IMG/VR virus record: IMGVR_UViG_3300009703_000012
Location: 1 to 64,000 of that record
Length of the DNA stretch: 64,000 nt
Strand: one strand, 5' to 3'
DNA from: an uncultured virus (IMG/VR IMGVR_UViG_3300009703_000012)
Lineage: Duplodnaviria > Heunggongvirae > Uroviricota > Caudoviricetes
The notes under the pieces were generated by a model that was not told the origin of the DNA, did not search any database, and saw only the letters and a list, made by a program, of their open reading frames with translations. This document shows positions 24,311 to 40,507 of this stretch, piece after piece. Made by a program: the position numbers and the translations under genes. Every line of letters begins with the position of its first letter. Position 1 is the stretch's first letter.

Positions 24311-24318
24311 TCATGACC

Positions 24319-24567
24319 TTAGTCCGAATGTGCTACTGAAGTTGCCTGACCCGTAAAAGTTACACTCCAATCAGAATTTTTAAGAATTTTATGTATTCCT
24401 ACAGGAAGTTTAATCGTTCCTTTAGATTCCCAAGATCCACCATTTATTGCAGGTCCCTGTACTTCTACGGTTCCCGCAGTTTCTATGTTACATGCAACTG
24501 TAGTTGCTGAACCAATAGTATTATTTGCTGGATCGGTTACTAAGGCACCAAGTAGTTTATAAGCCAT
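24319..24567 (-). CDS. Small beta-rich hypothetical (probable virion) protein
   Basis: 82 aa ORF with GGAG RBS in the head cluster. Confidence 0.6.
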   Translation of the reverse strand: MAYKLLGALVTDPANNTIGSATTVACNIETAGTVEVQGPAINGGSWESKGTIKLPVGIHKILKNSDWSVTFTGQATSVAHSD

Positions 24568-24570
24568 TAA

Positions 24571-25149
24571 TTATTCTCCTCTGCTTCTAGAAAAAGAAAC
24601 CATATTCCAAAAATCTTCTTTACTTTCAAATATTTTTTTAGAAAATTCTTTCTTATTTTCGTCATTTAATTTTTTATAAGTTTCGTATAAAACCTCTGCA
24701 TCATCAGGTTCAACAATTACTTGAACATCTTTCAAATTTATTTTATGTGATTCTTGAACTTTATAAATTTGCTTGAGTAATGGAATTAAATCATCAATAT
24801 GATGAACATCTTCAATCATATCCAGATCATCATCATATTCGAATTCCTCATAAGGATTATCTTCTGAACCATGATCCATTTCATATTCAAGAAAATGCTT
24901 TACAGAACTTATATAAGAACATGCTCTTGAAATTTTATCTTGAACCCATGCTTCTAATTCTGTATGATCATCGAGCATTTCAAAAAGTTCTCTACTATAT
25001 TTGTGTAGTTTGTATAAACTTTGTTTAGCCATTCTCCCCTCAACATCATCATAATTCATTTTTCCATGAGGATGTTGATGTGGAACACCACTAAAATGCT
25101 CTTTTACTTCTTTTTTAGCCGTTGCTGATAAATCTTTAAATTTTTTCAT
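24571..25149 (-). CDS. Probable internal head protein
   Basis: MKKFKDL start and EGRMAK..L...ELEAWVQDKI motif seen in T4-like head-region proteins; late promoter upstream. Confidence 0.6.
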   Translation of the reverse strand: MKKFKDLSATAKKEVKEHFSGVPHQHPHGKMNYDDVEGRMAKQSLYKLHKYSRELFEMLDDHTELEAWVQDKISRACSYISSVKHFLEYEMDHGSEDNPYEEFEYDDDLDMIEDVHHIDDLIPLLKQIYKVQESHKINLKDVQVIVEPDDAEVLYETYKKLNDENKKEFSKKIFESKEDFWNMVSFSRSRGE

Positions 25150-25181
25150 AACCCTCTAAATAAATTTCGTTATCTAATTTA

Positions 25182-25189
25182 TATTTATA
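25182..25189 (-). promoter_or_regulatory. T4-type late promoter
   Basis: Intergenic TATAAATA 32 nt upstream of ATG 25149. Confidence 0.75.
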
Positions 25190-25193
25190 TGGT

Positions 25194-25877
25194 TTATGTC
25201 CTTTGTATTGTACTTTGGATCAAACCAATTAATTTATTAAAAATAAGATTATTTCCCTCTTCACTTATTCCATTTACAGATTTATTGAATGATACACTAT
25301 ATTCTTTTTCGATTTCACAAATATCTTCATCTATAATGCCCGATTTAAAAGTAAACCAACCAGGAATATGATCATTTATAACGTGTATTGTTGGTATTTT
25401 TTTTGAATAAACATATTCATCAATTAAAGATAATGCTCCATGAAATCTATTTCTATTTACATCTCTATTAAAATGTAATTTCATGAAATCTTTTATAATT
25501 GATGCATCAATAGGTTCTGTAGGTACACTAAAATTTGTAACTATGTCTTTTCTGTTTTGTTTAAAAGCATCAACATAATCTAAAAAATGTTGCCGATTAT
25601 CCCAATCATCAACTCTATCATCATTCATATAAATAAAATCTCTAGTAAAATTTGGAAAATATATAAATTGAGGAGTTGAATGAAAGATTATTGCTATATC
25701 AATTTCACTGGTCTTTTTTAAATTGTAAAGAATCCTTTCTTCTGAACATTGTGCTATCATATAATTTAATGAAGAAGCATTGAAATGATCAAGAATCAAA
25801 TCATAGAATGCTTTAGGCTTTTCTATTTGAAAAGTATTTGATCCTATTATACTAGAACCATAAAATTCTATTTTCAT
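25194..25877 (-). CDS. Hypothetical protein, weak SGNH-hydrolase-like layout
   Basis: N-terminal FYGSS and C-terminal N.ISEEGN; the catalytic His is not evident. Confidence 0.4.
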   Translation of the reverse strand: MKIEFYGSSIIGSNTFQIEKPKAFYDLILDHFNASSLNYMIAQCSEERILYNLKKTSEIDIAIIFHSTPQFIYFPNFTRDFIYMNDDRVDDWDNRQHFLDYVDAFKQNRKDIVTNFSVPTEPIDASIIKDFMKLHFNRDVNRNRFHGALSLIDEYVYSKKIPTIHVINDHIPGWFTFKSGIIDEDICEIEKEYSVSFNKSVNGISEEGNNLIFNKLIGLIQSTIQRT

Positions 25878-25884
25878 AAGATTA

Positions 25885-26148
25885 TTAAGTCAAATATTCA
25901 TTCATAGCAAAGTTTAATTCTTGATACCAAATTGTCAGATCACCTGGTGCATTTCCAGACATCGTTGCTGTAAATTGTGTTGTTAAATCATTTAACGCTT
26001 TTAACATATTTGCTTCTTTTTCATTTTCTGACGGTTCAGCAGTTGCAATTAAATTAATCCACTCTTGACAGCCTCCTGTATATCCACCCTGCATTGTGTC
26101 TTCAAGTTTTTTCTTCAACTCATTAGATATTTCACTAATTTTAGCCAT
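25885..26148 (-). CDS. Hypothetical protein
   Basis: 87 aa ORF with AGGAG RBS. Confidence 0.65.
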   Translation of the reverse strand: MAKISEISNELKKKLEDTMQGGYTGGCQEWINLIATAEPSENEKEANMLKALNDLTTQFTATMSGNAPGDLTIWYQELNFAMNEYLT

Positions 26149-26954
26149 TATATCTCCTTTGACAATTCATATTTTTCATTTATAATATGTTCAGCAATAT
26201 CATTTATTATATTAAAAACAAGTGATCGAAATTTAAATTCATAATCAAAACGAAAATGATAAAAATTTTCACCTGGTAATGGAGCAGTCCTTAAACGTGC
26301 AGGCTTCCAATATCCTGTATTAAAACTTAATGTAATTCTATTAATTATTTGATTTATATTAAAATTCTCATCATCATTTAATTTTCTTTTTTCCCAAACA
26401 CCATTAATTGCATTTTTTAAAAGAAATGTAGAATAATTTAGTCCATTTATATTGCAAGCAGTCCATGATATATACGCATTGAGAAAATCAGACTTAACAT
26501 AGTGTCCTTCACATGAACCAAAAGTTCTAATTCCATCAAATGTATTGAGAATAGTGACCAATGGAAGAATACCTAATTCTATTTCATTCTGATTATCATC
26601 AGGCACTCCTCCACCTATAGCACCTGTAGAAGGATCTTCTGTTGGTAAAATATTTAATTCATTAAATAATGATATATTATCAGCAGAACTTTCACCTCTC
26701 CAATCATAACCAATTTCAAATTGTTTAAGAAAATCTTGAAAAGTTCTTGCTAACAATTCATATTTTATATTTGCATGTCCAGCAATTAATAAATATTCAC
26801 CTTTTCTCTTTGCTCGTTCAATAGAATCTTGATCACTACCCCCAATTTTATCTACTAATGAAACAAATAATTTATTCAAAGAATCTATTTCAATTTTTGA
26901 ATGAGGATCATGTGCAATAATATAATTATTTTTCCATGTATTAATTGTAATCAT
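26148..26954 (-). CDS. Hypothetical protein with TYW3-like motif
   Basis: ILPLVTILN..GIRTFGSCEGH; start moved to ATG 26954 to avoid overlap with the tRNA-like element. Confidence 0.5.
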   Translation of the reverse strand: MITINTWKNNYIIAHDPHSKIEIDSLNKLFVSLVDKIGGSDQDSIERAKRKGEYLLIAGHANIKYELLARTFQDFLKQFEIGYDWRGESSADNISLFNELNILPTEDPSTGAIGGGVPDDNQNEIELGILPLVTILNTFDGIRTFGSCEGHYVKSDFLNAYISWTACNINGLNYSTFLLKNAINGVWEKRKLNDDENFNINQIINRITLSFNTGYWKPARLRTAPLPGENFYHFRFDYEFKFRSLVFNIINDIAEHIINEKYELSKEI

Positions 26955-26974
26955 AACATACTTTTTTTTAATTT

Positions 26975-27047
26975 TGGTCGGGGTGGCGAGATTTACACTC
27001 ACAACTTCCCAACACCCTGTTGGCCGTTTTAATTAAACTACACCCCT
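26975..27047 (-). tRNA. Non-canonical tRNA-Pro(GGG)-like element
   Basis: 73 nt cloverleaf: AGGGGTG/CACCCCG acceptor stem, A73 plus CCA, D stem GTTT/AAAC, anticodon arm CCAA-CAGGGTG-TTGG, T stem GTGAG/CTCGC; D and T loops are non-canonical. Confidence 0.7.
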
Positions 27048-27098
27048 GTCCAAAGCGGAACTTTCGTTTCCATTCTCTGGTGTTAATATATATCGAGC

Positions 27099-27863
27099 CT
27101 ATATTTTAATTAAATTGATCCATATACCATTTAAGTCAACTTGCCACCATTTATACGACTCTTTTCTTGTCGTATAATTAGATGGATCTTCATGATGATT
27201 CAAATGCCATCCTTCTCCAGCGGTTATCAATGCCACTAAATTTTTATTCTCTGGTTTTCCATTCTTATGAGTAAATGCATTAATAATACCCGAACCATGA
27301 AGTATTAAACATGTAGGAATACAAAAACCAAATATAAAAAACCAAGGACCCATGAATAACAATACAATCATAATAATAACTGTTAAAGAAAGATAATTAT
27401 CATAAAACCATTTAGCAATAGGATCTTTTGTTTCTTCTAACCAATCTTTTAAATCTTCTCTTGTAGGAGGATCTATTGTAAACACTCCCATTCCCCAAAA
27501 ACTTGTCCACACATTCCAAAATCCTTTATGTTTAGGACTATGTGGATCTAATTCCGTATCACTATATTTGTGGTGTAATTTATGTGTTCCGCTCCATATA
27601 AGAACTGGTCCTGGATTACCAAATAAAGAAAAAAAATTAAAATAATAATCATACCAAAGCGGTGCTTTAAAACTTTTATGAGTATAATACCTATGATACC
27701 CAGTAGTATATGCTGTACATCCTATCCACTGCCACCATATCAAACTTAATATCCACATCCACCATTCGCCATAAAGAATTGCGGGTATAATTGCTAAATG
27801 AGCAATTAAATTAATTAAGAAAAAATAGGGAGTTCGCTTAGATTTAATATAATAATTAATCAT
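27099..27863 (-). CDS. Membrane fatty-acid desaturase (Delta9/DesC-like) no. 1
   Basis: His boxes HRYYTH, HKLHH, HLNHH; DPHSP; TM segments. Confidence 0.92.
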   Translation of the reverse strand: MINYYIKSKRTPYFFLINLIAHLAIIPAILYGEWWMWILSLIWWQWIGCTAYTTGYHRYYTHKSFKAPLWYDYYFNFFSLFGNPGPVLIWSGTHKLHHKYSDTELDPHSPKHKGFWNVWTSFWGMGVFTIDPPTREDLKDWLEETKDPIAKWFYDNYLSLTVIIMIVLLFMGPWFFIFGFCIPTCLILHGSGIINAFTHKNGKPENKNLVALITAGEGWHLNHHEDPSNYTTRKESYKWWQVDLNGIWINLIKI

Positions 27864-28654
27864 GCTTTAAAAAATCTTTCAATAAGAAACACATTTTTCA
27901 TATCTTGTTCATACCATCTATCTGACATTTTAAAATTATATGAAGAAGGATTATAATGATGATTGTTTTGTAATCCTCCAGAAGAAACAAGAATACAAGC
28001 AAGTATATTATTTTTTGAATTATCAGGTGTTTCAAAATTACGATATCCCCACAAATGACTCATCATATTAACAGCTATAGATCCAAACCAAAATGTTATT
28101 GCACTAGGAAGAGCAAATAAAAATACAAATATTCTCCAATCTATAGACACAGTTATTATGATTACGCATATTTGAATTAATAAATGATATCGATGTGCAA
28201 ATTTTATTGATTCATCTTTCAACAAATCTGCTACGAATCTAGGATCAAACTTTTCTATTTTTGAAAAATCCCAATATCCTCTCCAGATATGATACCATTT
28301 GCTGTGGTGGGGAGAGTGTACATCCTTTTCAGTATCAGAATGCTCATGATGATGTCTATGAACATATGACCAAGTAAGAGGACTACCAGCATAGCATAAA
28401 ATTGTACAAATTGAAAATAATTTTGGTACCCAAGGTTTCGCTTTAAATGAATTATGTGTCCAGTATCTATGGACTCCTATTTCGCCTCCAATATCTTTAA
28501 ACAAAATTATACCCACTAATGTTAAAAACAACCAATGCCATGACGAATATATTATTCCCAATACAGATATGATAGGAAAGGTATAAATCCACACATATTG
28601 TAATATACTAATTTGAAAATCTTTAACAAATAATTTATTAAGGTTATCTATCAT
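27860..28654 (-). CDS. Membrane fatty-acid desaturase no. 2
   Basis: HRYWTH, HRHHH, QNNHH; DVHSP; GYRNF. Confidence 0.92.
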   Translation of the reverse strand: MIDNLNKLFVKDFQISILQYVWIYTFPIISVLGIIYSSWHWLFLTLVGIILFKDIGGEIGVHRYWTHNSFKAKPWVPKLFSICTILCYAGSPLTWSYVHRHHHEHSDTEKDVHSPHHSKWYHIWRGYWDFSKIEKFDPRFVADLLKDESIKFAHRYHLLIQICVIIITVSIDWRIFVFLFALPSAITFWFGSIAVNMMSHLWGYRNFETPDNSKNNILACILVSSGGLQNNHHYNPSSYNFKMSDRWYEQDMKNVFLIERFFKA

Positions 28655-29483
28655 GTTTTAAAAACTTTTCTATTAAAAACACATTGGGAAAATCTGTCTC
28701 ATACCATCTATTAGACATTTTATAATTATATCTTTCAGGATGTGCATGATGATTATTATGTAATGTTCCTAATCCTCCTGTTATTATATTTAACCATGGA
28801 TTATTTACCGATAGATCATCAACTGTAGTTTCATAATTTCTATAACAACCAAATAACATTACATGTCCTAAAAAATGTGCTAACATTCCAGACCAAAAAG
28901 TTATAACACAAGGTAATGCTATAAAAAATATTAACAAACGAATATCGATTATTGATAAAATTACAATGGGAGAAAGTGCTATTAACCAATAATATTCATG
29001 ATTGAATCTTGCTACTTTATTTTTAAATAATTTTTTACAAAATTTATTTTCACTTTTTCTAAAAATATTCCAATCTTTACGTTCTTCCTGTTGAAGTTCT
29101 CCTAAAGTTTGAGTTATAATTCTAAAAACATCTTTAACATTCTTAATGTTATGAGGAGAAATTGGATCTTTTTCAGTATCAGATGTAGCATGATGCCATC
29201 TATGACCTATAGCATATGCTATATTACTTCCTCCATACGAAAATGCATATCCAATCATCATAAGCCATTCTGCCCAAGGTTTTGCTTCAAAACTCCTATG
29301 ACAAAAATATCGATGATTTCCTATTTCTGTACCGATATGTCGTAATAATATAACACCAATAAAAGATAACCATAACCAATGTAAAGAAAAAGTTATTAAT
29401 CCATATACAGTTAATATATGAAATAACGTATGAATAATAGAAATCATAATAACTGCAAACCTATTTGCTGTAAATTTGAACAT
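28644..29483 (-). CDS. Membrane fatty-acid desaturase no. 3
   Basis: HRYFCH, HRWHH, HNNHH. Confidence 0.92.
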   Translation of the reverse strand: MFKFTANRFAVIMISIIHTLFHILTVYGLITFSLHWLWLSFIGVILLRHIGTEIGNHRYFCHRSFEAKPWAEWLMMIGYAFSYGGSNIAYAIGHRWHHATSDTEKDPISPHNIKNVKDVFRIITQTLGELQQEERKDWNIFRKSENKFCKKLFKNKVARFNHEYYWLIALSPIVILSIIDIRLLIFFIALPCVITFWSGMLAHFLGHVMLFGCYRNYETTVDDLSVNNPWLNIITGGLGTLHNNHHAHPERYNYKMSNRWYETDFPNVFLIEKFLKHDR

Positions 29484-29484
29484 G

Positions 29485-30351
29485 TTAAACCTTTAAAAAT
29501 TTTTCTATTAAAAATACATTCAAAAAATCTGTTTCATGCCATTTATCATTCATTTTAAAATTATAGGCTCTTGAATTATGATGGTGATTATTTTGTAGTC
29601 CCATTCCCCCAGTAAATATATTTAACCATAGAGTATTAACTGAACGTTCCTTGTTACCCCACTCATCAGTTTCGAAATTTTTATAACTTCCAATAGTAGA
29701 AATATGTCCAAAAAAATTTAGTAGAGCCAAAGACCAAAAATTAATTACACATGGTATTGCTATAAGAAAGATTAATAAACGAATATCAATTATTGGTAAA
29801 ATTATAATTGGAAGAGATACAATCAACCAATAATAATTATGAGTAAATCTCGCTGGTTTATTCTTCATTAATTCCATAAAACCCCTCTTTTCATGAAACC
29901 ATTCCATGTATCTTTTCATTCTCATTTTATCAATTTCATCGTTATATAATTTTTCATATGCGAATACTGCAGGAAAAACAACTCTAACAAAATCTTTAAA
30001 TTTTTTTATATAATGTGGAGATTGTATATCATGTTTACTATCAGAAAATCTATGATGATAACTGTGTCCAGGACACCATGCTAACATACTACCTCCATAA
30101 TTCCATACAAATAAAATAGACATAAGCCACTGTGCCCACGGATTTGCTTTAAAACTTTGATGAGTATAATACCTGTGAGCGCCTATTTCAGTTCCTATAT
30201 GTCGAATTAAAATGGTTCCTATTAATGTTAACCACAACCAATGTAAAGAAAAAGTTATTATTCCATATACTAATAAAACATGAAAAGATAAATGAATCAT
30301 CATCCCAATAATAATTGCATTTCGTGTCATCTCATATTTAAACATTATCAC
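29485..30351 (-). CDS. Membrane fatty-acid desaturase no. 4
   Basis: HRYYTH, HSYHH, QNNHH. Confidence 0.9.
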   Translation of the reverse strand: MIMFKYEMTRNAIIIGMMIHLSFHVLLVYGIITFSLHWLWLTLIGTILIRHIGTEIGAHRYYTHQSFKANPWAQWLMSILFVWNYGGSMLAWCPGHSYHHRFSDSKHDIQSPHYIKKFKDFVRVVFPAVFAYEKLYNDEIDKMRMKRYMEWFHEKRGFMELMKNKPARFTHNYYWLIVSLPIIILPIIDIRLLIFLIAIPCVINFWSLALLNFFGHISTIGSYKNFETDEWGNKERSVNTLWLNIFTGGMGLQNNHHHNSRAYNFKMNDKWHETDFLNVFLIEKFLKV

Positions 30352-31118
30352 GCCTTTAAAAACTTTTCTATTAGAAAAACGTTCAAAAAATCTGTCTCAT
30401 ACCATCTATTAGACATTTTAAAATTATATCTTTCAGGATGTGCATGATGATTATTCTGCAGACCTTCTCCTAAAGTTAGTATATTCACCCATGTAGAATT
30501 TCGACTTTTATCGTTTGTATCATCAAAATTTCTATATCCATATAAATGCCCTATAGAATTTACCAGCCCCCCAGAATGAAGTGCAAATGCACTTGGAATA
30601 GCAAATAGAAAAACAGATATTCTCCAATCTATCAATGCAAATAAAATTAATGGTGTAGTTACTATAATTAAATAATTTCTATGTAAAAATTGTAAAAATT
30701 TATCTTCTATTAAATCTTGATACAATTTAACATCTAACACTTCAACTCGCCAGTTAGTAAAATAAACATCTATGAAACTCATGTGATGTGGTGAATGGGG
30801 ATCCAATTTAGTGTCTGATTTTTGATGATGTAGTCTATGAAAAGGAATCCAAGCATAGTGTGTTCCTCCATATGCAAAAAGTCCACAAATGGCCATTAAT
30901 TTTTTAGCCCAAGGTTTTGCTTTAAAACTTTTATGTGCAAAATATCGATGGGCGCCAATTTCTACACCAATATGTCTGAAAAAAATAATGCCCACTAAAG
31001 ACAACCACAGCCAATGCCATGATGAATATAACAATCCAACAACAGTTAATATATGAAATAAAATTTGAAATCCAAAATATGCCATCCAGGTATTATTATA
31101 TTTTGAAATGATTTTCAT
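30348..31118 (-). CDS. Membrane fatty-acid desaturase no. 5
   Basis: HRYFAH, HRLHH, GEGLQNNHH; DPHSP. Confidence 0.92.
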   Translation of the reverse strand: MKIISKYNNTWMAYFGFQILFHILTVVGLLYSSWHWLWLSLVGIIFFRHIGVEIGAHRYFAHKSFKAKPWAKKLMAICGLFAYGGTHYAWIPFHRLHHQKSDTKLDPHSPHHMSFIDVYFTNWRVEVLDVKLYQDLIEDKFLQFLHRNYLIIVTTPLILFALIDWRISVFLFAIPSAFALHSGGLVNSIGHLYGYRNFDDTNDKSRNSTWVNILTLGEGLQNNHHAHPERYNFKMSNRWYETDFLNVFLIEKFLKA

Positions 31119-31909
31119 TTTTTCTCCATTAATAATTTTTCGATTAAAAAAACATTTAAATCATCTCTTTCATACCATTTATTTGTCATTTTATAATTAT
31201 ATCTTTCAGGATATGCATGATGATTATTATGTAATCCTGATCCTAAAGTTAATATGTTCACCCATGTAGAATTTTGACTTTTATCAGTTGTTTCAAAATT
31301 TCTATATCCATATAAATGACCTATAGTATTTCCCAATCCCGCAGAATGAAATGTAATTACAACTGGAATAGCAAATAGAAAAACAGGTATTCTCCAATCT
31401 ATTAATGCTGTTATAATCAATGGTATAGTTACTATAATTAAATAATTTCTATGTAAAAATTGTAAAACGGGATCTTTAATTAAATCTGCAAAATATGATT
31501 TATCCACGGGTTCACGATAATACTGGTTCGCACTAGGAAAATACACATTTACAAAATTTAAAAAATGGGGAGAATGAGGATCATCAATTGTATCTGATTT
31601 TTGATGATGTAATCTATGAATTGGAATAAAAGAATATGGCGATCCTTGATATAAAAAAAGTCCACATATAATCATTAATTTTTGAGCCCAAGGTTTTGCT
31701 TCAAAACTTCTATGAGCATAATATCTATGGGCGCCTATTTCACCCCCTATATGTCGAAATAATATTACTCCAATAAGACTTAACCATAACCAATGCCAAG
31801 AACTATAGACAATTCCTAATGCCGCTACAATATGAAATAATATTTGAAATCCTAAATGAGTATGCCAAGTACTACTATATTTTAAAAAATTTTTCAATAA
31901 TCCAGCCAC
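31115..31909 (-). CDS. Membrane fatty-acid desaturase no. 6 (start uncertain)
   Basis: HRYYAH, HRLHH, HNNHH; DPHSP. Confidence 0.92.
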   Translation of the reverse strand: MAGLLKNFLKYSSTWHTHLGFQILFHIVAALGIVYSSWHWLWLSLIGVILFRHIGGEIGAHRYYAHRSFEAKPWAQKLMIICGLFLYQGSPYSFIPIHRLHHQKSDTIDDPHSPHFLNFVNVYFPSANQYYREPVDKSYFADLIKDPVLQFLHRNYLIIVTIPLIITALIDWRIPVFLFAIPVVITFHSAGLGNTIGHLYGYRNFETTDKSQNSTWVNILTLGSGLHNNHHAYPERYNYKMTNKWYERDDLNVFLIEKLLMEKK

Positions 31910-32633
31910 AAGGATCCCTTTCGTTATCTGTTACTTTTTCATTATATCTTTCAGGATAAGCGTGATGATTATTATGTAAGCCCCCTCCCCATATTAAAAA
32001 ATTAATCCACGTATTATTTCTACTATTATCATCAGTATCAAAATTACGATATCCCCATTTATGAGAAATAGTATTTATTAATAAAGTTGATCCATGAAAG
32101 GTTATTACAGAAGGAATACAAACTAAAAATACAAGTAATCTCCAGTCTAACAAATATAATATTCCAAACATCAATATTATCATATAAAAATAATATTTGT
32201 GTATGTTTTTAACTAATGGATCTTTCAATAAATCCATATACTCTTTTGGATTAGGAGATATAGGATTCCACAAAGTCAACCAGCACTTCCACCATGGTAT
32301 TATATTTGGAGAATGGGGTTCTTCTGGCTTATCTGCATTCATATGATGATATCTATGCAATATAGCCCAAGTCATAGGTGAACCATTACAATTTATTAAT
32401 CCCATAATTTGCAATATAAAATTTCTTATGGGTCCAGTTTTAAAAGATCGGTGAGAAAGATATCTATGAGTTCCTATTTCTCCACCCAACTTACTCAATA
32501 AAAGTCCAATAAACAGTACAATAAACAAATAATATGATGATTCTGTTATAGCATAATAAATTCCTATTATCATTAGAACATGATTCATTAATATTAAAAA
32601 CCATACTTTATATTTGTACGATACCTTTGTCAT
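31875..32633 (-). CDS. Membrane fatty-acid desaturase no. 7
   Basis: HRYLSH, HRYHH, HNNHH; EPHSP. Confidence 0.92.
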   Translation of the reverse strand: MTKVSYKYKVWFLILMNHVLMIIGIYYAITESSYYLFIVLFIGLLLSKLGGEIGTHRYLSHRSFKTGPIRNFILQIMGLINCNGSPMTWAILHRYHHMNADKPEEPHSPNIIPWWKCWLTLWNPISPNPKEYMDLLKDPLVKNIHKYYFYMIILMFGILYLLDWRLLVFLVCIPSVITFHGSTLLINTISHKWGYRNFDTDDNSRNNTWINFLIWGGGLHNNHHAYPERYNEKVTDNERDPCGWIIEKFFKI

Positions 32634-33333
32634 GATAATATGTTACTCCTGTATGAGCCATTTGTATTCTTTTTTTATTCCAAGTAGCATGATCAATTCC
32701 TTTAATAGTATGATTACCAGCATCCATAAACATAATCATACTGTGTCTTTCTTTTTTTGTTTTATTCGTTATTCTATGCGGAGTAGATTTTAATTTATTA
32801 TCTGACCAAATCTGCATAAAATCACCTATATTCACAATCAAAAAATCATCACTAGGATGATTTATTGTTCTCCATTTATCATCATAAAATATTTCATATT
32901 CTTCTACAGGATCACAAACATGAACAAGTGTTAAAGTACCAAAATCACAATGTTCTCCTACTCTTATTGATCCTTTCTGATCTTTATAATATTTAACCAA
33001 TCTCAAAGCATTATCAGAATCAGCATGTTTCATTGCAATAGAATTTGGAGGAACATTTAAAAATTCTTCAATAACATATAAAATTTCACATCCCACTTTT
33101 AAAAATCTTTGTTTAATATTATCACAATTTTTTAATATAATTTTTCTATACCCCTCTTCAGTTTCTTCTAATTCGTTTAATTGTATTTTAAGTTTTTCTT
33201 TAAAAGAAAGTAAACCTTCTTTCATATCTATGAAGGGATGATTAATTACTAAAAATCCCGAATCAATAAAACTAGAAATAATATTTTTATTATTCCATTC
33301 AGAAGGGATTGTATAGTCTAAGGTTTTTATCAC
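32608..33333 (-). CDS. 2-oxoglutarate/Fe(II) oxygenase, IPNS/DIOX-like
   Basis: HCDFGTLTL (HxD), VNIGDFMQIWS, STPHR, RHS (RxS). Confidence 0.88.
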   Translation of the reverse strand: MIKTLDYTIPSEWNNKNIISSFIDSGFLVINHPFIDMKEGLLSFKEKLKIQLNELEETEEGYRKIILKNCDNIKQRFLKVGCEILYVIEEFLNVPPNSIAMKHADSDNALRLVKYYKDQKGSIRVGEHCDFGTLTLVHVCDPVEEYEIFYDDKWRTINHPSDDFLIVNIGDFMQIWSDNKLKSTPHRITNKTKKERHSMIMFMDAGNHTIKGIDHATWNKKRIQMAHTGVTYYHDKGIVQI

Positions 33334-33758
33334 AAAGGATTAACTCCTGTAATAACTATTGCGACCACATAATCTTTTGTATCAGATAAAGAAAGTCTAA
33401 TATCTTGTCGTTTCAAATTCCAATCTTTGGGTTCCATAACACAATGAACAACAGGAAATCTTGCTCCTCTAGCTTTTAAATGTGTATAACTAACATCGAG
33501 TCTCAAATATGGAGATGCAATTGCTTTTGAAAATGCTTCTTTAACACACCAACATTTTGTTAAATATTTTGCAGTTATGGGATTTGGTGCATTTTTCTTT
33601 TCTATATCTGTTAATATTTTATTAACAAATTTATCACCCCATTTATCATATATTTTTTGAATGGGTTCTATTGTTTGTAAATCTATACCCAAGCCATTTT
33701 CTATTGTCATCGACAAAATTCTATTACGAATATCGTGTTTATCTTTTCCCCAAATCAT
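33330..33758 (-). CDS. acpS: Holo-ACP synthase (AcpS-type phosphopantetheinyl transferase)
   Basis: GLGID, F..KILT..E, WCVKEAFSKA, LSLSD..DYVVA.V. Confidence 0.88.
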   Translation of the reverse strand: MIWGKDKHDIRNRILSMTIENGLGIDLQTIEPIQKIYDKWGDKFVNKILTDIEKKNAPNPITAKYLTKCWCVKEAFSKAIASPYLRLDVSYTHLKARGARFPVVHCVMEPKDWNLKRQDIRLSLSDTKDYVVAIVITGVNPL

Positions 33759-34783
33759 ATTTTTTCTAATAATATAACATCAACCTGAAAACCTGGCCCA
33801 TAAGAAATCATAACTGTTTTGCCATCTTTATCAAAATCATGCTGTAAAGTTTTTATTACTGAAGTTGCAGACATATTTCCAAAATTTCGAAATAATTCAA
33901 AAGATGAATCCAAAGCACCTTCAGGTAAATTAAGCCCCTTTACAGTATTTTCTAAAACAATTTTTCCTCCTGGATGACATATCCAATTATTAATAGTATG
34001 ACCTTCAATAAATTCTTTAATTTTATCATTAAATGCCGCAGATGCTTTTGGTATTTCTTGCAATTTAGTTGATTCTACATGATATAATAATCCTTCACTT
34101 AATCCTTGAAGAGTAATATAATCTTCTGTATCTGGTAAAACATATGACACATGTTTATGTAATTTCCATCCTGGTGCATCATTATAATTATCTCCTGCAA
34201 TTAAAATAGCACTAATTCCATCACCAAATATTACAGATCCAAAAACAGTTGTTAATGTAGCATGTTCAGGACACAAATTCATTGAACATAAATCGTTAGT
34301 CATTGCTATAACTAACTTGTCTGGATTACCTTTTAAATATTCATTTGCTATTCCTAAAATATGAGTGCCTCCATTACATGCTAGACCAAACATGGGTATT
34401 TTAATCATTGATTCTGGAAAATTAAATTCTTTTAATATTGTATGGGGAATCGTAGGAATACCAACACCTGTCATAGTAGTTGATGTTAACATACAAACAT
34501 CTTGTGGATTAAATTCCAATTCCTTTACACATTCTAATGATAATTTTATAGCAACTTCATTAAATGTTTTATTTTTTTGAGTAAACGTTTGAGATTTTTC
34601 TCTCATCTCCTCTCGATTATAACAAGCATATCGAGTTTCAACACCCGTTAATGGAAGATATCTATCAAAAACTCTACCCGAATATCCTTTTTCTTCCCAC
34701 CATAATTTTAATTCTGCGGCAAAATCTTTATTATGATGTTCATTTTCAGGATGTCTAGTTGCTATTTGTAACACCTTGCTCAT
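33755..34783 (-). CDS. Type III polyketide synthase (chalcone-synthase-like)
   Basis: Intact Cys-His-Asn triad: FGLACNGG, WICHPGG, FGNMSA; also FGDG and YGPGF. Confidence 0.92.
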   Translation of the reverse strand: MSKVLQIATRHPENEHHNKDFAAELKLWWEEKGYSGRVFDRYLPLTGVETRYACYNREEMREKSQTFTQKNKTFNEVAIKLSLECVKELEFNPQDVCMLTSTTMTGVGIPTIPHTILKEFNFPESMIKIPMFGLACNGGTHILGIANEYLKGNPDKLVIAMTNDLCSMNLCPEHATLTTVFGSVIFGDGISAILIAGDNYNDAPGWKLHKHVSYVLPDTEDYITLQGLSEGLLYHVESTKLQEIPKASAAFNDKIKEFIEGHTINNWICHPGGKIVLENTVKGLNLPEGALDSSFELFRNFGNMSATSVIKTLQHDFDKDGKTVMISYGPGFQVDVILLEKI

Positions 34784-35397
34784 TTTGCCTCCAATGTCAT
34801 TTCTCTTACTCTTCCACTATGATTTAACATAAAGTCTATAGCATCTATACATTCATCTGTACTCAACATTGTTCCAGTTGTTTGCTTAACAGGATCAACA
34901 TCATATAAACGACTTACTACAGTACTTATTCTTGTTGTTCTAGGTGTTTCTACCCAACCAAGTCTTAAATTAGAAACTTTACATCCATGTTTTTTTGCTA
35001 CTTTTTCATGACAGTCTAAATTCATTTTATCAAGAGAAATTTTTCCTACTGAATATCTACTATGACCAATAGGCCATCCATCAGTATCTTTTTCCTGTGC
35101 AATTGAACTTATAGACACAATATGTTTATCGGGTTTATCTGCCCAAACTGAAAAAGAATATAATAATGCATTCGTTTGAGTCCACCATCTCAGATCACTA
35201 TATGCATTATTGATAAAAATATCTGCTTCAGGATCAAACCAATCTTTAATGTCTTGAATATCATGTTGATTATATCTTCTACTGTGACCTTCAACTTCTA
35301 TTACATCTTTATATTTTTGAATATATTTTCCATCATAATATTCAAAAAGTGCTTTTCCTAAACCAGAACTCACACCTGTTATCATCATTTTTTTCAT
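34780..35397 (-). CDS. Short-chain dehydrogenase/reductase
   Basis: TGVSSGLG, FINNA, SISS, YSVGK (YxxxK). Confidence 0.88.
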   Translation of the reverse strand: MKKMMITGVSSGLGKALFEYYDGKYIQKYKDVIEVEGHSRRYNQHDIQDIKDWFDPEADIFINNAYSDLRWWTQTNALLYSFSVWADKPDKHIVSISSIAQEKDTDGWPIGHSRYSVGKISLDKMNLDCHEKVAKKHGCKVSNLRLGWVETPRTTRISTVVSRLYDVDPVKQTTGTMLSTDECIDAIDFMLNHSGRVREMTLEAK

Positions 35398-35398
35398 T

Positions 35399-36523
35399 TT
35401 ACCTCACTAGATCATTGTTTTTCCATTCTCTTTTGGGGAATTTTGGTTGAATATATTTTTTAAAAACCATATTCTGTTCAGCTATAGATTTAACACCAAG
35501 AGTTTCCTGTATGTCTTTTCTCATTTCTTCAAATTGTGTTTTATAAGGCTCTTGGGAATAATAATTATATCCATCAGGAATTAACTGAGCATAATCACAT
35601 GGTTCTCGATAAGCCACTCGTTCAATGGGGGATCCTTGTCTATTATGCAAAGTAATACAATTATCAAAAAGTAATATATCATTATTTCTTTCATACTTGT
35701 GATGATAAGTATATTCATCTACAAATAATTCTTTGTCTAAATCATCTAAAAATTTAGTTCTCTCTACTGTACCAGGAGAATAATGCAGACCTTTTATTCC
35801 TCCAGGGGTTGTAATAACCAGTGGAAGTTCAATCGGTTCAAACGTTTGATTCCAACGAAATGAATCATCTTGATCTTTATTTAATTCAGGAGCAGTTTCA
35901 TAATTTTGATATTTAAAAATAACAGTCATATCATCTAATTCTCTTTTAAAAGAATCTCTTTGCTTTTCGTACCAAGTTGCAGAACAAACAAATCCTGTTG
36001 AAGACCCCACCATTCCTTTTATGCCCATGAGTGCAACACCAGGAGTAAAGCAAAGCGAACCCGCTTCATTAGAATGCCAGCCCAATTCTCCTTCAGCAAA
36101 CATTCCCATACTTCTCCCATTCTCTTTCATACCAGTTATACGAATTAAATGAGAATCAGCAGGAACCTCTTCTTCTGTAAAATTATCCCCTGCCGCAATA
36201 TACCACGTTAAATTTTCTGCATGTCGGCGATCTTCTTCTTCTAAAAGATCACGTTTGAATAATGTATATAAATTAGATATTCCTAATTTTTTTTCATATT
36301 TTTTCTTAATACGATATCCATCTATAACATATGGGGCGCCCCATAAATACATCTTACGTTCAAATTCAGATGGTTGAATATCTACATTTCTAATAATTGT
36401 AACTAAATCTGTAAGATGTTCTTTTCCTAATTGCATCCAATCATTATCAGACATTTCTGCTAATGATACATCATCTATAAATACACCATAGTCACCAAGT
36501 CCTGATATTTTACTTTTTCTCAT
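35399..36523 (-). CDS. TauD/TfdA-like Fe(II)/2OG dioxygenase
   Basis: ELGWHSNE, Y.H.Y..NDILLFDN..TLHNR motifs. Confidence 0.78.
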   Translation of the reverse strand: MRKSKISGLGDYGVFIDDVSLAEMSDNDWMQLGKEHLTDLVTIIRNVDIQPSEFERKMYLWGAPYVIDGYRIKKKYEKKLGISNLYTLFKRDLLEEEDRRHAENLTWYIAAGDNFTEEEVPADSHLIRITGMKENGRSMGMFAEGELGWHSNEAGSLCFTPGVALMGIKGMVGSSTGFVCSATWYEKQRDSFKRELDDMTVIFKYQNYETAPELNKDQDDSFRWNQTFEPIELPLVITTPGGIKGLHYSPGTVERTKFLDDLDKELFVDEYTYHHKYERNNDILLFDNCITLHNRQGSPIERVAYREPCDYAQLIPDGYNYYSQEPYKTQFEEMRKDIQETLGVKSIAEQNMVFKKYIQPKFPKREWKNNDLVR

Positions 36524-36893
36524 ATTGGCTCATTTCATAAACCCCTGTACCTGCTTCTTTATCTTTCTTTAGTTGTTCTAATAATCTGTTTCTAGCTTTT
36601 TCATCATCGCCTGCTTCTTTTTCAAGTTCTTTAATTTTAGCTCCTTGTTTTATTTTTACTTCAACTAAATCATAAAGATCCCTTACAGTAGTTGCTTTTT
36701 GAAATTCTTCAGCATCTAACATAATATCAAATTCATCTTCAATAAGAATCATAGTCTCTAAAATATGAATTGAATCAATATCAAGATCCTGTGCTATATT
36801 TTTTTCTGGTGTAATTTCTGGGAAGGAAAGGCCCATGCCTGCTTCATCAAAAGCGTCTTTACACTTTTGTTCAATTTCTTCTCTAGTAACCAT
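36510..36893 (-). CDS. Acyl carrier protein with charged C-terminal extension (start may be 36926)
   Basis: DLDIDSI phosphopantetheine Ser motif, IEDEFDI, TVRDL; acidic. Confidence 0.88.
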   Translation of the reverse strand: MVTREEIEQKCKDAFDEAGMGLSFPEITPEKNIAQDLDIDSIHILETMILIEDEFDIMLDAEEFQKATTVRDLYDLVEVKIKQGAKIKELEKEAGDDEKARNRLLEQLKKDKEAGTGVYEMSQYEKK

Positions 36894-36909
36894 TATATTC
36901 CTCAATATA

Positions 36910-37893
36910 TTATTGTGCCATATCAAACTCTAGCATTTCACATGCGGCTTCAAAATTTTCATTTGTTTTATCGTCTGGACGACTTACATATGCTTCTCTA
37001 ACATATGCTAATAAATCTGTCAATTGAGATGTATTGAGATTTGAAATGGCAGTAGTGTTTTCGGTATCAATTTCATCAAATATTTTTGATGGTTCAGAAT
37101 ATCTCAAATGAACATTACTTAACTTGATAATATATATGAACTTAGAATAAGTAGAACTTATAAGTTTATTATGTAATGATATACAATTTGATGGCAACCA
37201 ACTTAAACTAGAAATTTGAGAATCATTTGGTCCAGCTATATTACCATCAGGAGTTTGAGCAGTTTCAGTTGTATACCAAGTTTTTCCTTTTTCATCAATT
37301 GCATTAATTAAAATTTTCATTGCGATTTCCCATCTCATATCACTATTAAACCATGATATATCTTTAGAATCCATATAGTCAAGAGGTAATACTGGTGCAT
37401 CATCTACAATAAATGGATCACCACTAACATCAGATCCTCTTTGATATGCAAAATATAAAACTCTATCAGTCCATTGATCTTCGGTTACTGCAGTTTTTAA
37501 ATAATATTCTTTATTTGTTTTTAATATATTTAAAATTTGATCATATTTATCGGATTCGCTTCCATTAGCAAGGTCAGTAATCTTGGAATCATTCTGAGAA
37601 GCCTCCCAATCAGGGCTACCTAAATCTTCATAAAATCCCAATTCTTCTCCTTTAGATCGTTCTTCATTCGTTGTTGATACATATGGTCTCTGACAAGCAA
37701 AGCCCGAAACTCGATCAAGCCATTCGTTTTCTGTAGTTCCATTTTCTAAATAATATTGTTTATTTAATTTTAATAAATCTAAAATTTGATCAAATTTATC
37801 AGGCTCACTTCCATTAGCAAGTGAAACAATTTCGTTATCACATTTTACAGTTTTCCATGTTGAATTTCCAGGTATATCATTGAATGCCATCAT
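36910..37893 (-). CDS. Hypothetical protein with internal duplicated domain
   Basis: Two copies of I..LANGSE.DK.DQIL..LK.NK.YYL....TE..W.DRV..FA.QR. Confidence 0.75.
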   Translation of the reverse strand: MMAFNDIPGNSTWKTVKCDNEIVSLANGSEPDKFDQILDLLKLNKQYYLENGTTENEWLDRVSGFACQRPYVSTTNEERSKGEELGFYEDLGSPDWEASQNDSKITDLANGSESDKYDQILNILKTNKEYYLKTAVTEDQWTDRVLYFAYQRGSDVSGDPFIVDDAPVLPLDYMDSKDISWFNSDMRWEIAMKILINAIDEKGKTWYTTETAQTPDGNIAGPNDSQISSLSWLPSNCISLHNKLISSTYSKFIYIIKLSNVHLRYSEPSKIFDEIDTENTTAISNLNTSQLTDLLAYVREAYVSRPDDKTNENFEAACEMLEFDMAQ

Positions 37894-38165
37894 TTGTCCG
37901 CTAAGTCGTTATATTTATCTCTCATTCTTTGCCAAAGAATTAAGCCCGTTGTTGAAAATTCTATATGATCTGCTAATAATTCCACATTTTTATATGAATC
38001 AAGAGAAACATCAAATCTTGATTTTGTAGAATCTAATAAATCAACTATACGAGAATATTTATTTGAAATATTACTTTCTTCTAATTTTTTTATCTTAGTA
38101 AGAACTGCAATAATATTAATAGAGGATAAATTAACTACTGTCATTTTCAAGTCCAGTTGGTTCAC
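37890..38165 (-). CDS. Hypothetical protein
   Basis: Packed ORF with ATGA overlap to the next gene; start uncertain. Confidence 0.6.
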   Translation of the reverse strand: MNQLDLKMTVVNLSSINIIAVLTKIKKLEESNISNKYSRIVDLLDSTKSRFDVSLDSYKNVELLADHIEFSTTGLILWQRMRDKYNDLADK

Positions 38166-38877
38166 CAGGCATAATAACAGGTTGACTAGGATCTAACGCA
38201 AATTGCTTGTTTTCTTCATTTAAAGGAGTTTCTTGCTGTACATCATTTTGAGGAGCTTGTTGCTGTGATTGTTGTGGTTTTGGTCTAGGAGAAACTCCAA
38301 TACCCAATTCTGTATCAATAAAGCCTGTAACCTCATCCATTGCCTCATCAAGAGATTTAGTATCTTGTTCTTTTCTTTCTTTATCAATAAATTTAATATA
38401 TTCTTTTGGATTTCCTTCTGCTTTAATCAAAGTCTCTTTACATTGATTATCACAGTATTTGTGAAATTCAGAAGCAAATTGACAATTACAAAGCATTCCT
38501 TTTACATATTCTATTTCATTACCATCTTTGTCTGTAGTTACAGGATTAGATTCATGATTATCCATCATTTCTAATTCCTTTAATGTTTCATCTACTAATC
38601 CCTGTACCTTATTTTCTTGCTCTATATCTTTCTGAAAATTTTGAGGAACGGTTCCTGGAGGAGAAGCCCCACTTACTCTTATTTGATTGTTCGCTCCACT
38701 AGACTCTCCTTTAGCATCTGCTGACAACATACCTAAACCCAAGTCAATTGCTTTTAATAATACATGACCTATATGGCGTGTTTTTTCATTATCTAATAAT
38801 GGAACTAATGCTTGTATTGCTTCATTAGCGTGTTTTTTAATCAATTCATGTTCTTCAGCCATAATATCTCCTAACAA
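38131..38877 (-). CDS. Hypothetical acidic protein with a CNCQF...C...C cluster
   Basis: 248 aa ORF; likely start at MAEEHE behind AGGAG. Confidence 0.7.
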   Translation of the reverse strand: MLGDIMAEEHELIKKHANEAIQALVPLLDNEKTRHIGHVLLKAIDLGLGMLSADAKGESSGANNQIRVSGASPPGTVPQNFQKDIEQENKVQGLVDETLKELEMMDNHESNPVTTDKDGNEIEYVKGMLCNCQFASEFHKYCDNQCKETLIKAEGNPKEYIKFIDKERKEQDTKSLDEAMDEVTGFIDTELGIGVSPRPKPQQSQQQAPQNDVQQETPLNEENKQFALDPSQPVIMPGEPTGLENDSS

Positions 38878-40247
38878 GAAAGACTTTTTCCGTCTTCCGC
38901 AAATTTTGTTTCTTGTAAATGTTCTGTTCCAGATCCTTGACCAAAGGTATCAACTATACCTAAACGATCAAACATTGTTTTTGGTAACCCAGCTTTAGGT
39001 AATTCTCTTTCTATTTCGGGATCTGCATCTGGAAAATCAAAGAACTCTTCTCCAACTCTTACATTCACATTTTGAATTCTAGCAAGACCTTGTTGACTAT
39101 AATAAAATCTATGATCTTTCTTTTCTCCACATGAATTACACATATCACAAAATAAACTACACACAGGATAATTTATTAAATTTCTTCTCCATTTTTCTCT
39201 AAGCCAATCAATTTGTTCTTTTAATAACCATTTAATTTTTGCTTCATCTTCTGGCGTTTCGCCTTCTGCACACTTATTATCTAAAGATGTTACAACTCTA
39301 TCTGGTCCATATGTCGTTGCTATATGAAACATATCTTTTGCAAAACACATTACATTTGATCTATGAATAGTATATCTACATCTCCACCGTATTTGATCTT
39401 CACGGGATTTGTCTTTATTGTATTCCATAATATTACCAAAACATTTTAATACATCAAGAGTTGAATCTTTCCCAGAATAATAAACTCTATCTTGACTTCC
39501 AACTCCATCAAAACTAATATCAAAAGAAACTCTTTGTTTTATTTCAGGATGCTCTTCTAAATATGCGGTCACTTTTTTAAAAAAAGCAGGCTTACTTAAT
39601 AATATACCATTTGATGTTATATTAAAATGACAATTATGTTTTGATTTATAAGCATAATCCATTAAAAATCTACAATTCTCCCATTCCATCAAAGGTTCAC
39701 CACCAAAAATACAATAAAGAGTTTGTTCATCAGGTCTATCTGATTCCATAATATTATCGATAAGATTGGCTATTAAAGGAGGTTCGGGTAAATGTTTAGG
39801 TCTTCCTTCTAAATGCTGATAGCAATAATTACAATCTAAATTACATTGACTTGTCATATAAAATAAATGAATTGCACCACCATGTGCAACTCTTGTTTTT
39901 TCATTTTCTCCATGTGTAAAATGTCTATCATAAATTTCACTAACAGTTGCTTCTTCAGTTTTTATTTTTCCCTGTTTTAAATCTTCAATACGATGTCGAT
40001 GTCTATCTGTTGAAACAGATTCAAAATTTTCTTTTACTACTTCATTTAATTTTCTATTCGAAATTTCTCTAATTTTTGAATCTGGATTTTTTGCAAGACT
40101 CTGTTCCTGAATAGTTGCCAATTCATGAATCTTATGGGTTGTATATGGTTTGCATATACTCTCTCCATCATTCAATCCTCTTTCATAATCAATAATATCA
40201 TCCAATTTACTAAATTCTGGACAAATTTTATCTGAACGGGATCTCAT
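38871..40247 (-). CDS. Radical SAM protein with N-terminal extension and short Cys cluster
   Basis: CNLDCNYC, FGGEP, SNG, ISFDG; C-terminal CSLFCDMCNSC. Confidence 0.9.
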   Translation of the reverse strand: MRSRSDKICPEFSKLDDIIDYERGLNDGESICKPYTTHKIHELATIQEQSLAKNPDSKIREISNRKLNEVVKENFESVSTDRHRHRIEDLKQGKIKTEEATVSEIYDRHFTHGENEKTRVAHGGAIHLFYMTSQCNLDCNYCYQHLEGRPKHLPEPPLIANLIDNIMESDRPDEQTLYCIFGGEPLMEWENCRFLMDYAYKSKHNCHFNITSNGILLSKPAFFKKVTAYLEEHPEIKQRVSFDISFDGVGSQDRVYYSGKDSTLDVLKCFGNIMEYNKDKSREDQIRWRCRYTIHRSNVMCFAKDMFHIATTYGPDRVVTSLDNKCAEGETPEDEAKIKWLLKEQIDWLREKWRRNLINYPVCSLFCDMCNSCGEKKDHRFYYSQQGLARIQNVNVRVGEEFFDFPDADPEIERELPKAGLPKTMFDRLGIVDTFGQGSGTEHLQETKFAEDGKSLSC

Positions 40248-40507
40248 TTTTTTCTTTCCTTATATTTTTTAATTATGTAGGACATATTTCTCATTAATCC
40301 TGCAAAATCTAAATTATATTTAAATAATGGCTCATGACCTATTCCCTCTTCTCCGGATTCATATTCGAAACTTCTCTTGAGTAAATTTTTATCTCTAGCT
40401 TGAACTTTATCAGGAGTTTCTTCATCTTGCAATTGTTTTATTATTGCATTGATATCACCTTCACGGGCCGCCTTTTCTGAAATTTCTTTTCGTTCATCTT
40501 TATTCAT
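40244..40507 (-). CDS. Hypothetical protein
   Basis: 87 aa, overlaps both neighbours (coupled). Confidence 0.7.
   Translation of the reverse strand: MNKDERKEISEKAAREGDINAIIKQLQDEETPDKVQARDKNLLKRSFEYESGEEGIGHEPLFKYNLDFAGLMRNMSYIIKKYKERKK

Follow-up and report, generated by a model that had tools for sequence, protein, structure and literature searches.

A conserved gene cluster with a candidate carrier-protein lipid/polyketide pathway in a marine T4-like phage

Gene content of the cluster

The uncultured Caudoviricetes virus of IMG/VR record IMGVR_UViG_3300009703_000012 is represented by a 76.9-kb genome fragment with a CheckV completeness of about 33%, and the DNA analysed here, hereafter the window, is the first 64 kb (64,000 nucleotides) of that record. 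Every long open reading frame (ORF) of the window is on the minus strand. Positions 27099 to 36926 hold a cluster of genes that encode an acyl carrier protein (ACP), an AcpS-type phosphopantetheinyl transferase, a type III polyketide synthase (PKS), a short-chain dehydrogenase/reductase (SDR), two iron- and 2-oxoglutarate-dependent (Fe/2OG) oxygenases and seven membrane desaturases. The 13 contiguous, co-oriented genes described in a first-pass annotation of this DNA were confirmed in place on the minus strand, and the six 4-nt start/stop overlaps that it had noted (at 27860, 30348, 31115, 33330, 33755 and 34780) were all found. Two more genes immediately downstream (26148-27002 and 25885-26148) accompany the cluster in related phages. 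The genes, from upstream to downstream, are:

36510-36926, minus strand: stand-alone ACP (Pfam PP-binding, 31.5 bits, cut-off 20.8); probable start at a Met near 36893
35399-36523, minus strand: TauD/TfdA-like Fe/2OG dioxygenase, accessory, position varying in relatives (Pfam TauD, 42.7 bits, cut-off 27)
34780-35397, minus strand: short SDR-type reductase of 205 aa, core (motifs; adh_short at 18.2 bits, below the cut-off of 26.6)
33755-34783, minus strand: type III PKS, alkylpyrone/alkylresorcinol-synthase-like, core (Chal_sti_synt_C 41.9 bits, Chal_sti_synt_N 33.0 bits, cut-off 27)
33330-33758, minus strand: AcpS-type 4'-phosphopantetheinyl transferase of 142 aa, core (Pfam ACPS, 43.3 bits, cut-off 25)
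32608-33333, minus strand: 2OG-Fe(II) oxygenase, IPNS/DOXC-like, accessory (Pfam 2OG-FeII_Oxy, 62.2 bits, cut-off 23; PDB match TraH, 3.7e-12)
31875-32633, minus strand: des1, desaturase type B, a core type (PF00487, 58 bits; clade with type B of loci L001/L003 at 100/97; all His boxes)
31115-31909, minus strand: des2, desaturase type C, a core type (PF00487, 60.7 bits; SCD1 4ymk, 3.1e-19; type C clade at 100/99)
30348-31118, minus strand: des3, type C paralogue whose box 3 reads QNNHH (Pfam, alignment, tree)
29485-30351, minus strand: des4, type C paralogue that has an insertion and whose box 3 reads QNNHH (100/99 as sister to des5)
28644-29483, minus strand: des5, type C paralogue with an insertion (NCBIfam DesA_fam, 57.6 bits; His boxes; no Pfam match at E 0.01)
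27860-28654, minus strand: des6, type C paralogue whose box 3 reads QNNHH (Pfam, alignment, tree)
27099-27863, minus strand: des7, type A, in only some relatives (NCBIfam, 54.5 bits; groups with L001/L003 type A at 100/100; no Pfam match at E 0.01)
26148-27002, minus strand: orf_26148, conserved accessory protein with an invariant TFGSCEGH, inside the cluster in relatives; probable start 26954
25885-26148, minus strand: orf_25885, small 87-aa protein, in relatives encoded between the genes for the 2OG oxygenase and the type B desaturase (Pfam and NCBIfam searches without a match)

Judged by its domains and motifs, the PKS is a genuine type III PKS of the long-chain alkylpyrone/alkylresorcinol kind, as the first-pass annotation had it. 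Both chalcone-synthase domains score above the Pfam cut-off, the best match among PDB sequences is Mycobacterium tuberculosis Pks11 (2.4e-29; CylI, 7e-17), and the active-site Cys, the His of HPGG and the Asn of GNMS are in register with the Pks11 alignment. Cys136 and Asn303 of the triad are invariant and His270 is near-invariant, and each of the 15 distinct orthologues retains GLACNGG, C(H)PGG and GNMS. Resorcinol-forming type III PKSs are described as marked by a Trp at the position of ArsB-281 (PMC9927152).

The other core enzymes were assigned from family models and motifs. The DS(I) serine of the ACP is conserved across all 12 distinct orthologues, and the protein matches the AcpP-type NCBIfam models below their cut-offs. 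Its charged C-terminal extension of about 40 aa (36510-36650) overlaps the start of the TauD-like gene and occurs, among orthologues, only in the L113/L115-type lineage, which has five or more desaturases. Comparison with orthologues indicates that the start codons of the ACP and of orf_26148 are probably internal Met codons. For AcpS, the class expectation was a length of about 120-140 aa with an ACPS domain above the gathering score; the protein scores below the cut-offs of the NCBIfam holo-ACP synthase equivalog models. The SDR keeps TGxxxGxG, NNAY and YxxxK in 11 of 11 distinct orthologues and groups in the ESM Atlas with virus-only short SDR clusters; a search against PDB sequences gave no match, and its AlphaFold model (mean predicted local distance difference test score, pLDDT, 45) was not used.

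The placement of an invariant SDR between the ACP and the PKS would also suit another chemistry, in which the PKS is a FabH-like initiating condensing enzyme acting on malonyl-ACP and the SDR a ketoreductase, giving 3-hydroxyacyl-ACP for a modified envelope lipid and no aromatic product. Weak matches of the PKS to FabH-family models in Pfam and NCBIfam, and the pairing of desaturases with a KAS I/II enzyme in another phage (L014), are consistent with such a scheme. Nevertheless, we regard it as very unlikely, since those FabH models fall far below their cut-offs while HPGG, GNMS and the above-cut-off chalcone-synthase domains mark the protein as a type III PKS, and no dehydratase or enoyl reductase is present.

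All seven desaturases match NCBIfam DesA_fam, far below its equivalog cut-off, and five of them score 56-61 bits with Pfam FA_desaturase (cut-off 29.7); the PDB match of des2 is mouse SCD1. In the alignment, boxes 1 and 2 (HxxxxH and HxxHH) and the His of transmembrane helix 4 (TM4) are kept in all seven, and des5 has a His in place of the TM4 Asn. Box 3 reads QNNHH in place of HNNHH in des3, des4 and des6, so that its first His is replaced by Gln in three of the seven. The Gln variant of box 3 occurs in front-end desaturases. Thus, where the catalytic motifs of the cluster had been called complete, this was right for the PKS triad, the ACP serine and the SDR YxxxK, and too generous for box 3 of these three desaturases. 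The desaturases were typed by alignment and a maximum-likelihood tree of 29 viral desaturases, which resolved type A (des7, 51-57% identical to type A of L001/L003), type B (des1) and type C (des2 to des6), each grouping with L001/L003 orthologues at 100% bootstrap. Because des2 to des6 all fall within type C, five of the seven copies are, on the evidence of the tree, a tandem, lineage-specific expansion of that type.

Conservation of the cluster and its phage setting

A scan of IMG/VR for close relatives with the PKS yielded four contigs, and a scan with a desaturase added a fifth, L010, which starts at AcpS. A metagenome scan with a phage-only PKS alignment gave 19 loci, one on a 204-kb contig and two that correspond to the viral records. 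Gene order was counted from a tblastn table of the 19 metagenome loci, each denominator being the loci that reach far enough. In 15 of 15 loci the PKS is preceded by the ACP and the SDR, always with the SDR between the ACP and the PKS, and in 14 of 14 it is followed by AcpS. Two or more desaturases are present in 13 of 14 loci; the exception, L118, ends inside its first desaturase. The gp21 gene (85-98% identical) follows downstream wherever the contig extends. The fixed core is therefore ACP-SDR-type III PKS-AcpS with at least two SCD1-like desaturases. The proposal of a phage-borne gene set that recurs across related phages, findable as contigs with a PKS, an ACP and several desaturases in T4-like surroundings, is borne out in both viral and metagenome contigs; homologues that were scattered and never co-occurred had been named as grounds to abandon it, and the core genes instead travel together.

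The number of desaturases varies among the relatives, from two (L116, L119, L122, L123, L124, L125 and L129) through three (the L001/L117/L121 and L003/L120 types) and five (L113 and L115) to seven in the window. Six complete relatives have only two. A pathway designed around seven desaturases, as first supposed, is not upheld, since the tree makes the excess a local type C expansion and relatives manage with two, three or five. The desaturases are interleaved with the core genes in some loci, lying between the ACP and the SDR in L113 and L115 and between the PKS and AcpS in L128.

The remaining genes are accessories that vary among relatives. They comprise four families of oxygenase as well as a class I methyltransferase, orf_26148 and the small orf_25885. 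The HxD motif, distal His and RxS of the 2OG oxygenase recur in all nine of its orthologues. The TauD-like protein keeps WHSNE and LHNR in 5 of 5 orthologues and has the distal His-x-Arg; it had no match among PDB sequences. It is 36% identical to a protein of Prochlorococcus phage P-HM2 that likewise reads WHSNE, whose gene adjoins gp59 in a genome with no match to the phage PKS. This WHSNE family of marine phages (another example is L132 1090-2148) is also found in Prochlorococcus phages P-HM1, P-HM2 and MED4-213. Because the family is wider and is present in P-HM2 without a PKS match, the TauD-like protein need not belong to the pathway; the first-pass annotation took it for an integral part, and it is better seen as a variable accessory like the 2OG gene. 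Relatives carry further accessories, namely a Rieske ring-hydroxylase-alpha-like gene and Asp/Arg-hydroxylase-like cupins. In five loci a class I methyltransferase lies between the SDR and the PKS (Methyltransf_11, 2e-23; UbiE/COQ5 and CMAS above cut-off). In L126 (1513-2339) the methyltransferase is in two frames, by frameshift or sequencing error.

The protein of orf_26148 is encoded inside the cluster in the L001-type, L113/L115 and L122 loci. Its family spans 48-100% identity and has no Pfam match; D120, 24 residues upstream of TFGSCEGH, is invariant. The TYW3/Taw3 class is described as combining the signature (S/T)xSSCxGR, an Asp upstream of it and a His with a RAGNYA+SHS2 fold (PMC5311493), and TFGSCEGH agrees with it at four of six fixed positions. 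A VIA search with the structural model (pLDDT 68.6) placed four TYW3/Taw3-family chains in its first 16 matches, with Z-scores of 5.5-6.4 that fall in the range of noise; Foldseek gave nothing at E <=0.001 and a profile search against PDB sequences nothing meaningful. The protein is possibly a diverged TYW3/Taw3-like enzyme, which we offer as a lead only. Within the family (P0187), one member is named by one source as a protein of a Cryomorphaceae metagenome-assembled genome, and the longest contig of the family is the 204-kb one; the naming probably reflects a phage contig that was binned together with a flavobacterial genome, at most a faint hint of the host.

The PKS clade is, by sequence identity, isolated from the cellular type III PKSs. 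A word-indexed search gave 20 clusters at 68-100% identity, all metagenome-derived, two of them named alkylresorcinol/alkylpyrone synthase by JGI. An exhaustive HMMER search gave 2357 relatives at E <=0.001; besides fragments and one multi-domain protein of 4818 aa, a single full-length 50% cluster was close (77%), and the next relatives, Streptomyces type III PKSs among them, were at most 31% identical. Among 50,697 phage records the sole type III PKS match was in Streptomyces phage ZL12 (22% identity over 71% of the protein), and megablast of the cluster against the same records gave no match. The best 80 cellular type III PKS loci, at 24-30% identity to the phage PKS, served as a comparison set. 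Homologues of the phage desaturases, AcpS, SDR, TauD-like protein, 2OG oxygenase and orf_26148 were found at none of these 80 loci, and an ACP lies just downstream of the PKS at six of them.

The T4-like phage context claimed for the cluster is firmly supported. PHROG matches identified T4-type genes for a clamp loader, a gp46/47-like nuclease, a helicase, a scaffold protein, a tail sheath and a large terminase, and T4-like head, tail and replication genes flank the cluster on both sides. The landmarks of this region and the upstream neighbours of the cluster are:

20301-21641, minus strand: major head protein (PHROG match)
22953-23600, minus strand: gp21-like prohead protease, which anchors the island downstream (phrog_207 at 1.2e-80)
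38871-43889, minus strand: three radical SAM/SPASM genes, upstream neighbours of the island in most relatives (Pfam, PHROG, NCBIfam)
56154-57836, minus strand: portal protein gp20 (PHROG match)

The cluster lies inside about 32 kb of flexible DNA bounded by gp21 and gp20. The major capsid protein is 64% identical to that of Pelagibacter phage HTVC008M, 63% to those of the Methylophilales Melnitz phages and at most 60% to those of cyanomyophages, and the portal protein is 51-53% identical to cyanophage and Melnitz portals alike. On these identities the source virus is placed as a deep member of the marine T4-like myovirus group; as far as sequence comparison goes, the capsid and portal genes do not reveal the host.

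A chimeric assembly or contamination with host DNA had been named as what could overturn the phage origin of the cluster, and its probability is now negligible. The 9.8-kb cluster stretch is present in 20 public sequencing runs from at least six studies, at 74-99% of sampled words; for 11 of these rows no study is given, and three of the runs could themselves be the source. No RNA runs are listed among them. Contigs from four runs not flagged as possible source cover 30 of 30 bins of 21000-40500, and tiling contigs (for example 24459-26427, 25897-28718, 33639-36945, 36307-37445 and 37428-40300) span gene boundaries and both junctions with 0-5 mismatches per piece. The same context recurs across many independent contigs and samples, gp21 adjoins the cluster in viral and metagenome contigs, and the cluster has the GC content of the backbone at the replication-gene end of the window (29.5% in both). 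Nothing spoke in favour of a chimera, which was therefore rejected. Summed depth was 6-9 across the cluster and 25-40 across the head genes, which we read as a flexible island carried by only part of the related phage population. In runs X4, X5 and X6, low-depth contigs link 26741 to 40244, with 35 identical letters between; these may represent a related genotype without the whole 13.5-kb island, or a repeat artefact.

The radical SAM/SPASM genes lie at 38871-40247, 41172-42398 and 42603-43889, and their best NCBIfam match, PapB ranthipeptide maturase, is below its cut-off. Between them and the ACP, a 327-aa protein (36910-37893) has two internal repeats of about 45 aa (LANGSExDKxDQIL...W.DRV). 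These genes may constitute a module of their own that modifies peptides or proteins. The stretch from the island to the portal gene encodes two giant fibre/collagen-like proteins of 1576 and 1679 aa (46012-50742 and 51068-56107), whose genes have a GC content of 38-44% against about 30%. Promoter-like sites (118 against 119 expected) and terminator-like sites (7 against 4.6) were at chance level, as was TATAAATA (11 against 12 expected), which did not occur on the coding strand of the cluster.

A candidate ACP-templated pathway

We propose, at roughly even confidence, that the conserved operon of the flexible island encodes a carrier-protein lipid/polyketide pathway in which an acyl-ACP is desaturated and then cyclised by the PKS to an oxygenated alkenyl pyrone, resorcinol or quinone. 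In this scheme the phage AcpS would convert the phage ACP to holo-ACP, and a host fatty-acid synthase or acyl-ACP synthetase would load a fatty acyl chain onto it, host loading being assumed because no phage ligase was seen. A phage ACP that is accepted by the host synthase and ignored by host acyltransferases would explain the missing ligase. The desaturases, with host electron carriers, would add several double bonds to the carrier-bound chain. The PKS would then use the chain as a starter, add two or three malonyl-CoA and cyclise the product to a pyrone or resorcinol head. The SDR, the oxygenases and, in relatives, the methyltransferase would tailor it to an oxygenated, possibly quinone-like unsaturated phenolic lipid, which would end up in the membrane of the infected cell.

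Published precedents for the single steps fit together into such an ACP-templated route to an unsaturated oxygenated lipid. Type III PKSs that use acyl-ACP starters are described for HidC (putatively), for transfer from CylB to CylI and for germicidin synthase, and in cyanobacteria the chain undergoes tailoring while bound to a free ACP, after which a type III PKS closes the resorcinol (PMC8086630). In bacterial polyyne pathways three membrane desaturases are described as acting on an ACP-bound fatty acid (PMC9828172, PMC8406139), and operons in which a type III PKS is joined by a methyltransferase and a hydroxylase as making alkylquinones, which serve as alternative electron carriers (PMC9927152, PMC10896814). 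The Rieske ring-hydroxylase-like and UbiE/COQ5-like methyltransferase accessories of the relatives suit a predicted aromatic head group.

Several observations weigh against the proposed pathway. AMP-binding (PF00501), thioesterase (PF00975), 4HBT (PF03061), Fer2, rubredoxin (PF00301) and Rieske domains are absent from the 76.9-kb fragment record, and an AMP-binding ligase is also absent from the five related viral records, all of which are fragments. It had been noted for the window that no ligase, thioesterase or electron carrier is visible, and this holds across the whole, about one-third complete, record. The nearest annotated relatives of the desaturases are acyl-CoA or acyl-lipid delta-9 enzymes. 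Arrays of three to seven desaturase copies occur without a PKS in other viral records, and a PP-binding match was found in none of the five desaturase-array records. The TauD-like protein reads WHSNE where the canonical HxD is expected (by eye from alignments); both proteins first described as Fe/2OG oxygenases score above their Pfam cut-offs, and for this one the canonical motif is missing. Finally, the invariant SDR has no obvious step in the known alkylresorcinol/pyrone (phenolic-lipid) routes, and on these grounds its role is the weakest point of the pathway model.

The desaturase arrays bear on whether the cluster is one pathway at all. L014 (6104-19429) has seven desaturases with KAS I/II, Rieske proteins, a radical SAM enzyme and a cupin, and no PKS; L011 (10001-13396) and L013 (3020-12340) have three to five desaturases with Rieske proteins and no PKS; L027 (8832-12489) and L028 have five tandem desaturases between UvsW and gp47/46-like genes of another T4-like phage. 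Among these array contigs, one 73-kb record has a CheckV completeness of 12%, which points to a very large virus. Plasmid matches to the desaturases were stand-alone DesA-type genes or unannotated DNA only, and a scan of genome contigs with a single desaturase found no relative. Because arrays occur without an ACP match or a PKS, the desaturases need not act on the phage ACP. It is conceivable that the cluster is two unrelated modules, in which the desaturases remodel host membrane phospholipids, a function proposed for single desaturases of cyanophages, and ACP-AcpS-SDR-PKS makes a saturated alkylpyrone, an alkylresorcinol or another product alone. The SCD1/DesC-type similarity of the desaturases, the free-standing arrays and the single lipid desaturases described in phages (PMC5776448, PMC7029224) favour this division, which we nevertheless consider rather unlikely: at least two desaturases accompany the core in all but one truncated locus, they are interleaved with the core genes in three architectures, and the gene overlaps make one translationally coupled string in the window.

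A more specific version of the ACP-templated route, with desaturase/acetylenases acting on acyl-ACP as in JamABC and cay/pgn and the PKS off-loading an alkyne or polyyne chain, was part of the first interpretation. The dedicated ACP with three desaturase types parallels the published ACP and desaturase triad (PMC9828172, PMC8406139), and the QNNHH variants of box 3 show functional divergence among the paralogues. We give this version little credence, at about the level of the FabH-like scheme, as the fatty acyl-AMP ligase (FAAL), thioesterase and rubredoxin described for the published core (PMC9828172, PMC8406139) are absent from the record, two desaturases suffice in six complete relatives, and no specific support for acetylenic chemistry was found. 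Taken together, the initial interpretation was right in kind and over-specific in its acetylenic chemistry and in treating seven desaturases as design.

The product of the proposed pathway and its biological role, for which membrane remodelling, exclusion, grazers and signalling have been considered, are pure inference. It is a distinctly unlikely but definable prospect that the product is a phage-made membrane redox lipid, a polyunsaturated alkyl-resorcinol or alkyl-quinone that would be the viral counterpart of the mycobacterial and Streptomyces polyketide quinones and would act as an alternative electron carrier or antioxidant, sustaining the energy metabolism of a streamlined marine host during infection. 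The desaturases would then supply an unsaturated tail, as prenyl units do in isoprenoid quinones, and differences in their number (2, 3, 5 or 7) would adjust that tail from one phage lineage to another.

Comparison with known systems

Marine phage auxiliary genes are mostly single enzymes that boost host pathways. If the proposed pathway is correct, lytic phages of an abundant T4-like lineage would synthesise their own specialised lipids via a self-contained ACP/PKS operon. Such an operon would open a route to new unsaturated phenolic lipids, and the natural series of two to seven desaturases could reveal how paralogues divide positions on one chain. A full-text literature search, with most subscription journals outside its scope, found no report of a type III PKS/ACP/desaturase cluster in phages. 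The lipid desaturases described for cyanophages, and for a freshwater pelagimyophage with fabF and a stearoyl-CoA desaturase (PMC5776448, PMC7029224), are alike in being delta-9-type auxiliary genes of T4-like phages. However, those are single genes, whereas here two to seven copies are tied to an ACP/PKS core; the available text of PMC5776448 makes no mention of polyketide, acyl carrier or tandem copies. Streptomyces phage ZL12 also has a type III PKS, in a different phage type with a different host, and gives no sign of a shared cluster.

Among cellular systems, the ACP-primed type III PKS clusters (Myxococcus ftp, Streptomyces srs, mycobacterial and Streptomyces pkq, and the Acidobacteriota loci L039, L050 and L051) likewise have a long-chain type III PKS beside a stand-alone ACP. 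Their methyltransferase and hydroxylase tailoring is described as giving membrane phenolic lipids, some of them alternative electron carriers (PMC10896814, PMC9927152). Taken as a set, the three Acidobacteriota loci gave Pfam matches for an acyl-AMP ligase, an ICMT methyltransferase, an FAD monooxygenase and a radical SAM enzyme. The phage set, in contrast, is without an acyl-AMP ligase, adds its own AcpS, the invariant SDR and two to seven desaturases, and uses 2OG, TauD, Rieske or cupin oxygenases in place of an FAD hydroxylase with an ICMT methyltransferase. Its PKS is only 24-31% identical to cellular enzymes, and a desaturase neighbour was found at none of the 80 cellular loci.

The JamABC, cay, pgn, cepacin and collimonin cassettes resemble the phage cluster in having a designated ACP with several membrane desaturases, to which activity on the carrier-bound chain is attributed. 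The phage cluster differs from them in its lack of FAAL, thioesterase and rubredoxin and in having a type III PKS instead; three desaturase types occur in the window and in the L001/L003-type loci, with two desaturases in the six complete relatives. In the CylA-I pathway to cylindrocyclophanes and in the HidC pathway to hierridin, the chain is likewise described as undergoing tailoring while attached to a free-standing ACP, with a type III PKS then completing the resorcinol (PMC8086630), although the tailoring there is halogenation and type I PKS extension, and those clusters are cellular and include a ligase. The phage operon represents a variation on a known biosynthetic logic in an unexpected carrier.

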